This document shows, piece after piece, positions 3,534 to 3,707 of a stretch of 4,613 nt of DNA. The stretch is from IMG/VR virus record IMGVR_UViG_3300007747_000079; one strand, written 5' to 3'. Below the pieces are notes generated by a model. The model made no database searches, was not told the origin of the DNA, and saw nothing but the letters and a program-made list of their open reading frames with translations. Both the position numbers and the translations under genes were made by a program. Every line of letters begins with the position of its first letter. Positions within the stretch are counted from its first letter, which is position 1. The DNA comes from a virus (lineage: Duplodnaviria; Heunggongvirae; Uroviricota; Caudoviricetes).

Positions 3534-3707
3534 TCAGCCTTTGGGCTCGATACCGCGCTGTTGTAATTCTTTGCGGAGTATTCGTTTAATCCAAGTAGCT
3601 AATGAGGTGTCGCCGTCTGCCTTGGCTGCCTCCTCAAGTTGCGCTCTAAATTCTTCTGGTAGTCGCATTTGGTATGGTGGCGATCGTTTCTCTAATGGTG
3701 TTGACAT
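3534..3707 (-). CDS. Arc/MetJ-type ribbon-helix-helix transcriptional repressor (57 aa; absent from ORF track)
   Basis: Reverse-complement translation from ATG (complement of 3705-3707) to TGA (complement of 3534-3536) gives MSTPLEKRSPPYQMRLPEEFRAQLEEAAKADGDTSLATWIKRILRKELQQRGIEPKG. This follows the Arc-like pattern (…RlPeel…aA..…S.n..I..rL) comparable to P22 Arc. Its start codon abuts the palindromic operator repeats. Confidence 0.75.
   Translation of the reverse strand: MSTPLEKRSPPYQMRLPEEFRAQLEEAAKADGDTSLATWIKRILRKELQQRGIEPKG

Follow-up and report, generated by a model that had tools for sequence, protein, structure and literature searches.

Arc, Mnt and CopG exemplify a familiar class of RHH (ribbon-helix-helix) repressors, those whose operators lie within a divergent promoter. 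Arc of phage P22 (53 aa, immI) is encoded by the first gene of the operon that it represses (arc-ant), and Arc dimers sit side by side on DNA at a spacing similar to the 12 bp that separate two of the sites described below (O2 and O3). Mnt of the same phage (82 aa) ends in a tetramerisation helix and has a single operator of 17 bp; it is transcribed away from the promoter that it blocks, and the weak Pmnt and the strong Pant overlap and compete. Among phage satellites, Stl/Rpr master repressors govern the Gram-positive PICIs; the Stl proteins are larger, of the helix-turn-helix type, and helper-phage proteins have been shown to release them. The regulator of these Gram-positive islands (SaPIs) is transcribed away from the excision/replication operon (PMC6092414), while induction of EcCICFT073 depends on AlpA, which alone suffices for it (PMC6092414). 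Immunity RNAs of the P4 CI/P1 C4 type are also reported in some PICIs (HE-PICI study, PMC10111431). A repressor of embedded Gram-negative PICIs is not reported in the searchable literature, which takes in few subscription journals.

Here we analyse a gene for a 57-aa RHH protein, located in a 4,613-nucleotide stretch of viral DNA (IMG/VR record IMGVR_UViG_3300007747_000079) to which we refer as the window. The protein is similar to Arc in size and in its beta-alpha-alpha layout, the N-arm motif P-x-(F/Y)-x-(L/M)-R-x-P-x-E is found in both, and both are expected to bind operators inside a promoter. Unlike arc, the gene points away from the operon that it would control; its candidate operators have no sequence relation to the Arc operator and number three instead of one. 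By analogy of gene position, the protein would resemble Mnt more than Arc, as a maintenance-type RHH repressor with divergent, overlapping promoters (predicted here); unlike Mnt it has no C-terminal tail, and its targets would be satellite replication genes, whereas that of Mnt is an antirepressor. The P22 sar antisense RNA finds a parallel in a candidate antisense RNA of the present locus, if that RNA is real. With Stl/Rpr the gene shares the map position and the expected role in island quiescence. With the P4 CI and P1 C4 RNAs it shares the placement of an immunity function just 5' of an icd-type gene (kil/icd), the difference being that here a protein is predicted to exert control, supplemented at most by a cis-antisense RNA. 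Altogether, we consider it likely that the RHH protein is the resident PICI repressor, which would act on three operators, O1-O3, and silence the early operon driven by the promoter P_R.

Positions 3400-3900 of the window are 100% identical to E. coli strain 20 (NZ_CP064847.1), in the annotation of which an island of ~10.7 kb interrupts gpA, the gene for the large terminase subunit in a lambdoid prophage. The window opens in the gpA gene, which is cut at ~1154 and followed by a P4-type integrase at 1316, and the terminase C-terminus picks up again ~10.7 kb on (L001 8760-21628, the source-genome locus). Since the island lies between the two halves of gpA, it is a helper-embedded PICI, the configuration described by Tommasini et al. 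2023 with a list of terminase sites (PMC10111431). The element has the integrase with an AlpA-like gene, the Bro zone, the primase zone, the late genes and the insertion in a late gene that define such islands; no direct repeat that could represent the att sites was found at a seed length of 12. The first part of the island reads integrase, AlpA-like HTH gene, Bro-N gene and, on the minus strand, the RHH gene, and the second part HNH, icd-like, DUF4222, primase, SSB, capsid-protease fusion and DUF1441 gene. The RHH gene is transcribed away from the early/replication operon, and is not mentioned in Tommasini et al. 2023 (PMC10111431). A strong plus-strand intrinsic terminator is also found immediately behind the AlpA-like gene and ahead of the Bro-N gene (2784-2804, ACCCCGCACGCAATGCGGGGT then TTTTTT), which would separate the integration unit from the Bro gene.

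The preliminary description of this DNA had placed a nuclease operon to the right of the small gene. What lies there is the early/replication operon of the satellite (icd-like, DUF4222, primase, SSB), and the nuclease belongs to a cassette that stands in place of the middle of the icd-like gene:

3838-3912, plus strand: icd-like N-terminal remnant of 24 codons; the 121-aa homologue of STEC005 starts at the equivalent position
3905-4582, plus strand: HNH_3-AP2 endonuclease ORF of 225 codons, with the icd-like C-terminal 51 aa in frame

The HNH_3-AP2 ORF is the first long gene downstream of P_R, and its icd-like C-terminal 51 residues are 90% identical to the intact 121-aa STEC005 protein. The cassette was found in 3 of the 5426 complete E. 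coli genomes, as identical copies, and thus its insertion looks recent and homing-endonuclease-like; an HNH_3-AP2 protein is mentioned in one helper-embedded PICI (PMC10111431).

The RHH gene itself is defined by the following features:

3534-3707, minus strand: RHH gene, 57 codons, stop codon within the span (RefSeq WP_000106746.1)
3716-3720, minus strand: Shine-Dalgarno-like AAGGG, 8 nt 5' of the RHH ATG, read from the sequence
3420-3439, minus strand: hairpin and T-run resembling an intrinsic terminator, which would end the RHH transcript

The ORF translates as MSTPLEKRSPPYQMRLPEEFRAQLEEAAKADGDTSLATWIKRILRKELQQRGIEPKG, identical to the translation given by the earlier reader, who had found the gene unlisted; in the source genome, RefSeq labels it WP_000106746.1, 'hypothetical protein'. 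The ORF tool has a default listing cut-off of 60 aa, and a similar cut-off at the first stage, if one was used, could account for the omission of a 57-aa ORF. Two further elements of the preliminary description were found where it had put them. The start codon (3705-3707) overlaps the -35 of the rightward promoter (TTGACA, 3701-3706), and a terminator-like hairpin follows the gene at 3439-3420; in the leftward direction it reads GGCGACCGCCCCAGGTCGCC followed by TTTGTTTT, 95 nt beyond the RHH stop codon. A hairpin with a T-run lies at most ~120 nt from the RHH stop in many homologous loci, despite unrelated flanks. Loci of the KTDQYQ(I/L)RL variant are without an obvious Shine-Dalgarno sequence. 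We also observed a 24-nt hairpin with T-runs on both strands at 3357-3380, inside the last 50 nt of the Bro-N ORF, which could serve the RHH gene as an additional terminator in the leftward direction. The block conserved in E. coli begins at the RHH stop codon and reaches ~20-30 nt into the icd-like gene (135/139 to 457/471 in query coordinates), and the sequence past the RHH stop codon is unrelated between loci. The block spans both the RHH gene and the palindromic sites, and thus gene and sites travel together. On sequence grounds, the RHH module is portable and monocistronic.

Two promoters and three palindromes occupy the region upstream of the RHH gene:

3701-3729, plus strand: rightward early promoter P_R, TTGACA-17-TACTAT, predicted start near 3736
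3706-3719, unstranded: candidate operator O1, ATGGTAATTACCCT, in the P_R spacer and overlapping the RHH start codon
3736-3749, unstranded: candidate operator O2, ATGGTAATTACCAT, perfectly palindromic over 14 bp, at the predicted start of P_R
3748-3761, unstranded: candidate operator O3, ATTGTACTTACCAT, a degenerate version of the motif, spaced 12 bp from O2
3748-3775, minus strand: candidate RHH promoter P_L, -35 TTGTTT (3775-3770), 16-nt spacer, -10 TACAAT (3753-3748)

P_R scores 10/12 against the consensus and is the best match of the whole window, in which the total number of promoter-like matches is no higher than chance; the spacing from the -35 to a TAnnAT -10 is maintained in relatives. 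O1-O3 are three related palindromes within 54 bp, with the core GTAATTAC, and O2 and O3 could form a tandem site for two dimers. The number of operator motifs in the window was reached by none of 200 shuffles, and in the 24.5-kb locus no other site has fewer than two mismatches, so that the motif is confined to the P_R region. Among 45 distinct loci from several gammaproteobacterial families, the mean pairwise identity is 99% in the last five bases of the -35 (TGACA), 71% in O1 and 67% in O2, but 36-38% in the sequence between and around them. P_L is a putative weak promoter of the RHH gene that faces and overlaps P_R. It scores 8/12 here in a relaxed comparative scan, while a strict consensus scan of the window reported neither P_L nor any other leftward RHH promoter. 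A match at the position of P_L is among the two best candidates in about half of the 51 regions scanned, with the positional pattern TTGnTT at -68 to -71 and TAnnAT ending at -40/-41 from the ATG; the -10 stays TAnnAT while its middle bases vary (TACAAT, TAAAAT, TATAAT, TACTAT). The predicted starts lie at ~3741 leftward and ~3736 rightward, and thus the polymerase footprints of P_L and P_R overlap. Besides, O2 and O3 cover the start site and the -10 of P_L; with P_L facing P_R, both autorepression and promoter competition are therefore expected.

Across homologous loci, the operator sequence changes together with the N-terminal arm and beta-strand of the protein:

Arm and strand RSP(Q/P)(Y/F)QMRL: operator TGGTAATTACCA
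Arm and strand KTDQYQ(I/L)RL: operator TTGTAATTACAA
Arm and strand RSPQFPMRL: operator GGTATATACC
Arm and strand GNPPFQFRL: operator GTGTAATTACAC

The change of Q13 to P goes with a change from AATT to TATA in the operator core (GTAATTAC versus GTATATAC). From the Arc alignment and the Arc-operator structure, we take residues 11, 13 and 15 to be the base-reading positions. Within a locus, O1 and O2 agree at 9.8 of 12 positions, as opposed to 7.5 of 12 when O1 is compared with O2 of loci with a different O1 core; both this agreement and that between protein and operator are confounded, and inflated, by shared ancestry. Nevertheless, O1 and O2 change jointly although the 18 bp that separate them vary without constraint, which points to a common, co-evolving binding protein. 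The adjacent palindromes, the operators suggested for this protein at the outset, thus appear to behave as its cognate sites, being footprinted across 45 loci and co-varying with the beta-strand, and the arrangement of RHH gene, promoter and operators is kept from E. coli to Pasteurella and Aeromonas. These observations bear on another reading, that the palindromes are operators of a different island protein (AlpA-like HTH, Bro-N, Rha or icd-like) and that the RHH protein has some other job. The icd-like C-terminal domains are labelled 'transcriptional repressor' by PHROGs, and Bro-zone proteins are DNA binders (PMC10111431). However, the same RHH gene and operator set are found beside unrelated Bro-N, Rha or ORF6N neighbours, and the operator variants follow the RHH beta-strand, so we hold this reading to be improbable. 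Concomitantly, a Bro-zone protein was considered as the cognate antirepressor. The Bro-N protein of this island has no similarity to the Rha protein that stands beside the nearly identical RHH gene of STEC005; Bro-N/Rha thus do not co-vary with the RHH gene, and such a role is speculation.

If the RHH protein is the resident repressor, its dimers would put paired N-terminal beta-strands (residues ~11-16, P-Y-Q-M-R-L) into the major groove of the palindromes with the core GTAATTAC. Occupancy of O1-O3 would block P_R, and the operon of icd-like, DUF4222, primase and SSB genes would be silent in the integrated island. The RHH gene would be transcribed leftward from the weak P_L, which faces and overlaps P_R; it would be autoregulated, with P_L competing with P_R as at Pmnt/Pant of P22. 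Binding, repression, autoregulation and the way in which a helper phage would lift repression are inferred, while the promoter and operator layout, the conservation of the sites and their co-variation with the protein are observed. The data support a repressor of the main early promoter of the satellite, while the 'master switch' of the preliminary description is to be read as hypothetical, and the RHH protein may be neither the sole nor the master control. As to other inputs, AlpA-driven read-through into the operon was considered, and is weakened by the plus-strand terminator at 2784-2804 after the alpA-like gene.

The location of the sites also bears on whether the RHH protein could be a CopG/ParG-like factor for copy number or partition, or else purely an autoregulator; it would then adjust the replication of the excised island and would not be an immunity repressor that silences the integrated one. 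Its putative target operon does contain a primase/replication gene, CopG and ParG are among its fold neighbours, and there are weak PHROG matches to families labelled 'partition protein ATPase'. On the other hand, the sites overlap the promoter core and are not arrayed like those of a centromere, the island annotation contains no partition ATPase, and the RHH gene is divergent from the operon, whereas copG is the first cistron of its own. We give this explanation the same small chance as the reading in which another island protein binds the palindromes.

The assignment of the protein to the RHH class draws on several comparisons. An AlphaFold2 model, computed from a 56-sequence alignment, has a pLDDT of 76, with an extended N-arm (1-17) and two helices (18-31 and 36-50). 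The beta-strand is absent from this monomer model, which is the expected look of an RHH monomer because the strand forms only in the dimer. The topology of beta-strand, helix A, turn and helix B over ~45 residues is present in the protein, as are the glycine turn between the helices and the alternating polar and hydrophobic strand residues. R15, in the Y-Q-M-R-L strand, and G32 are invariant, while D31 and D33, which flank G32, are conserved to at least 90%; this pattern would fit an RHH strand and inter-helix turn. The top 50 Foldseek neighbours, with E-values that are all non-significant, are almost all RHH proteins, AmrZ being first, and include Arc, CopG, ParG and many RHH antitoxins. PHROG 228 ('Arc-like repressor') matches with an E-value of 3e-7, and the N-arm RSPPYQMRLPEEF aligns with KMPQFNLRWPREV of Arc. 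The Pfam Arc model (PF03869) gives 16.9 bits, below its gathering threshold of 20.4, and matches 19 of 56 homologues at E <= 0.1 (best 1.5e-4). Searches of the PDB, whether with the single sequence or with a profile, brought up nothing but designed helical-repeat proteins, matched on composition, and AmrZ at E 0.5-0.9; hhalign gave a probability of only 26% for the family profile against one Arc sequence. The RHH fold proposed from the letters alone thus stands on the model, on PHROG 228 and on the Foldseek neighbours; we accept it as RHH/Arc-like, the protein not being assigned to Pfam Arc.

Because many RHH antitoxins are among the fold neighbours and some homologues are named 'HicB family antitoxin', we also considered that the protein is an antitoxin that neutralises the icd-like protein, a neighbour named host cell division inhibitor by NCBIfam, through protein-protein contact. 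However, the RHH gene is monocistronic with its own terminator, no toxin is co-transcribed or encoded on the same strand, and the 57-aa protein has no C-terminal toxin-binding extension; an adjacent co-transcribed toxin and such an extension, the hallmarks of type II TA antitoxins, are thus both lacking. Moreover, the icd-like gene is disrupted in this island while the RHH gene is intact. An antitoxin function therefore appears very unlikely.

A search of 5.8 billion proteins retrieved 108 RHH homologues, which with few exceptions are 55-60 aa long and belong to Enterobacterales, Pasteurellaceae, Aeromonas, Oceanimonas and Gilliamella, and one scan of species-representative genomes gave 66 loci. 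The family forms a compact group, with 15 clusters at E <= 1e-10 in a set of 1.84 billion representatives, and hardly occurs in phage genomes (4 of 50,697 records), the sole close match being a 15-kb 'Pasteurella phage', which has the size range of an island and not that of a complete phage genome. Of the 5426 complete E. coli genomes, 1250 carry the RHH module. The frame is open in all 60 distinct homologous coding sequences, as compared with 31 of 60 for the best antisense frame. Among 29 distinct 57-codon RHH genes mean pN is 0.15 and mean pS 0.73 (saturated), and the median dN/dS is 0.09 for pairs with finite dS; variability at codon positions 1, 2 and 3 is 0.157, 0.073 and 0.370, i.e. 3>1>2. 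Frame conservation and dN/dS, two of the checks proposed with the preliminary description, thus both came out in favour of the gene, which is shown to be real and under purifying selection. That the ORF arose by chance, or as the shadow of the 181-codon plus-strand ORF at 3367-3912, has a negligible probability and is already refuted by the open frame and the low dN/dS, for although the 4.6-kb window holds 41 ORFs of at least 30 aa and the two frames have wobble positions in common, the many homologues of nearly uniform length speak against chance and the plus-strand ORF would cross the promoter, the operators and the hairpins. RefSeq calls are inconsistent: the gene is a 'hypothetical protein' in some genomes and uncalled in others, copies with 93.5% identity included (e.g. 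STEC005, L002 6164-6337). Database names of homologues include 'Arc family DNA-binding protein' next to the antitoxin label above.

Downstream of the operators, conserved elements that could act as RNA extend over the start of the icd-like gene:

3775-3807, minus strand: hairpin H1, outer stem 3775-3782/3800-3807, inner stem 3784-3787/3794-3797
3818-3834, unstranded: hairpin H2, CGTTA/TAACG
3766-3856, minus strand: candidate antisense RNA of ~75-79 nt, -10 TATGCT (3856-3851), start near 3844

H1 is followed directly, in the leftward direction, by a T-tract (3774-3766), and the U-tract is conserved on the leftward strand. The loop of H2 holds the Shine-Dalgarno sequence AGGAG (3825-3829) of the first rightward gene, and its stem is extendable, as TCTAACCA (3807-3814) pairs with ATGGCT (3838-3843); this pairing can, as predicted, bury the icd-like start codon in the extended stem. 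We also noted that TCTAACCA and ATGGCT hardly vary even between distant genera, and that this extends to the wobble T of the second codon. In 41 loci, 86% of the cells of H1 and H2 pair, versus 24-44% with slid partners, there are compensatory changes in 11 of 17 pairs, and the covariation score was reached by none of 500 shuffles, the test being one of a manually specified structure; RNAalifold on a MAFFT alignment recovered only 6 pairs. In 36 of 43 loci, the leftward version of H1 is the more stable one (mean -17.8 versus -14.8 kcal/mol, p=7e-5), and H1 has 77 G.U pairs in the leftward and 27 in the rightward sense. H1 as a leader structure of the sense strand was thus set aside, since the strand-asymmetry test favours the leftward strand.

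On the leftward strand, ~75 nt 5' of the T-tract, codons 5-7 of the icd-like gene contain a -10-like hexamer. The outer T, A and T of this hexamer occur in 45, 44 and 44 of 45 loci, and its three central bases are variable; a codon wobble position is among the invariant ones, and a G at -14 is present in 40 of 45. The predicted 79-nt RNA has two stem-loops and a fold z of -5.9. No Rfam family, C4 and isrK included, matched either strand of the window. We propose the leftward RNA of 75-79 nt, ending at H1 and the T-tract, as a candidate cis-antisense RNA; it would be complementary to the Shine-Dalgarno sequence and AUG of the icd-like gene. With the RHH protein as repressor of P_R, this candidate RNA over the icd-like ribosome-binding site may be a second, translational lock.

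The same slot holds other small genes in related islands. The type element EcCICFT073 has no homologue of the RHH protein of the window. Its slot encodes a 59-aa protein of the YlcI/YnfO family with an RHH-like pattern (…QALKARVPHEIVNAMESVKESGESTSQF…; L008 474-653), two GTGGGCCACACCT repeats flank the -10 of a TTGACG promoter (L008 700-760), and the same leader and icd-like gene follow. A third type is found in STEC17-190, where a small YlcI/YnfO-family protein with the strand QTVAARV is accompanied by three GTGTTCAACAC palindromes (L075 4511-4800); this module stands in tandem with a complete module of the window type. The beta-strands and the repeats differ between the alleles while the layout of promoter and leader is constant, and such a combination of different small proteins and repeats on a constant scaffold is as expected of exchangeable immunity specificities. 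Thus YlcI/YnfO proteins (NF041551) share with the RHH protein an identical slot in EcCICFT073 and STEC17-190, with the same layout of promoter, leader and icd-like gene. They differ in their repeats (GTGGGCCACACCT and GTGTTCAACAC, unlike the window operators) and in that their start codon is ~50-60 nt from the -35, whereas that of the window gene overlaps it. Model NF041551 matches the RHH protein at E 0.001 and 19.1 bits, below its 30-bit cut-off, and hhalign of the family profile against the YlcI-like protein of CFT073 gave no match. We also observed a stretch of ~45 nt 3' of the RHH gene (3466-3515; …caacaatgccacatttgcggctggtgggcaatg…) that is common to EcCICFT073 (L008 200-250), where it is kept although the small genes between it and the promoter differ.

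As a tentative generalisation, which we put below the assignment of the repressor itself, the RHH family and the YlcI/YnfO proteins might be overlooked immunity repressors of Gram-negative PICIs, with interchangeable specificities and operators of their own; together with the ~75-nt antisense RNA they would form a switch of the replication operon, similar to P22 immI, that holds until the helper phage acts. A conserved, multi-allelic repressor module of Gram-negative PICIs, with a candidate antisense RNA, likewise appears unreported in the searchable literature, few subscription journals being covered, and the small slot genes appear there as 'hypothetical', 'HicB' or 'YlcI/YnfO' accessories (PMC10111431, PMC13612085). 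The RHH-operator module, directly 5' of the replication operon, is a testable candidate for island silencing, for the basis of immunity types among co-resident satellites and for what the helper phage must overcome. A practical point is that annotation of the RHH gene is inconsistent and that it is absent from some RefSeq records. Some Photorhabdus loci carry two copies of the RHH module ~1.2 kb apart. Finally, outside the window, the late region of the island contains an 80-nt direct repeat with 91% identity (L001 16601-16680 and 19136-19215); copy 1 lies in the gap after the SSB gene and copy 2 ends ~150 nt 5' of the DUF1441 gene, and the pair may be a repeated regulatory or packaging element.
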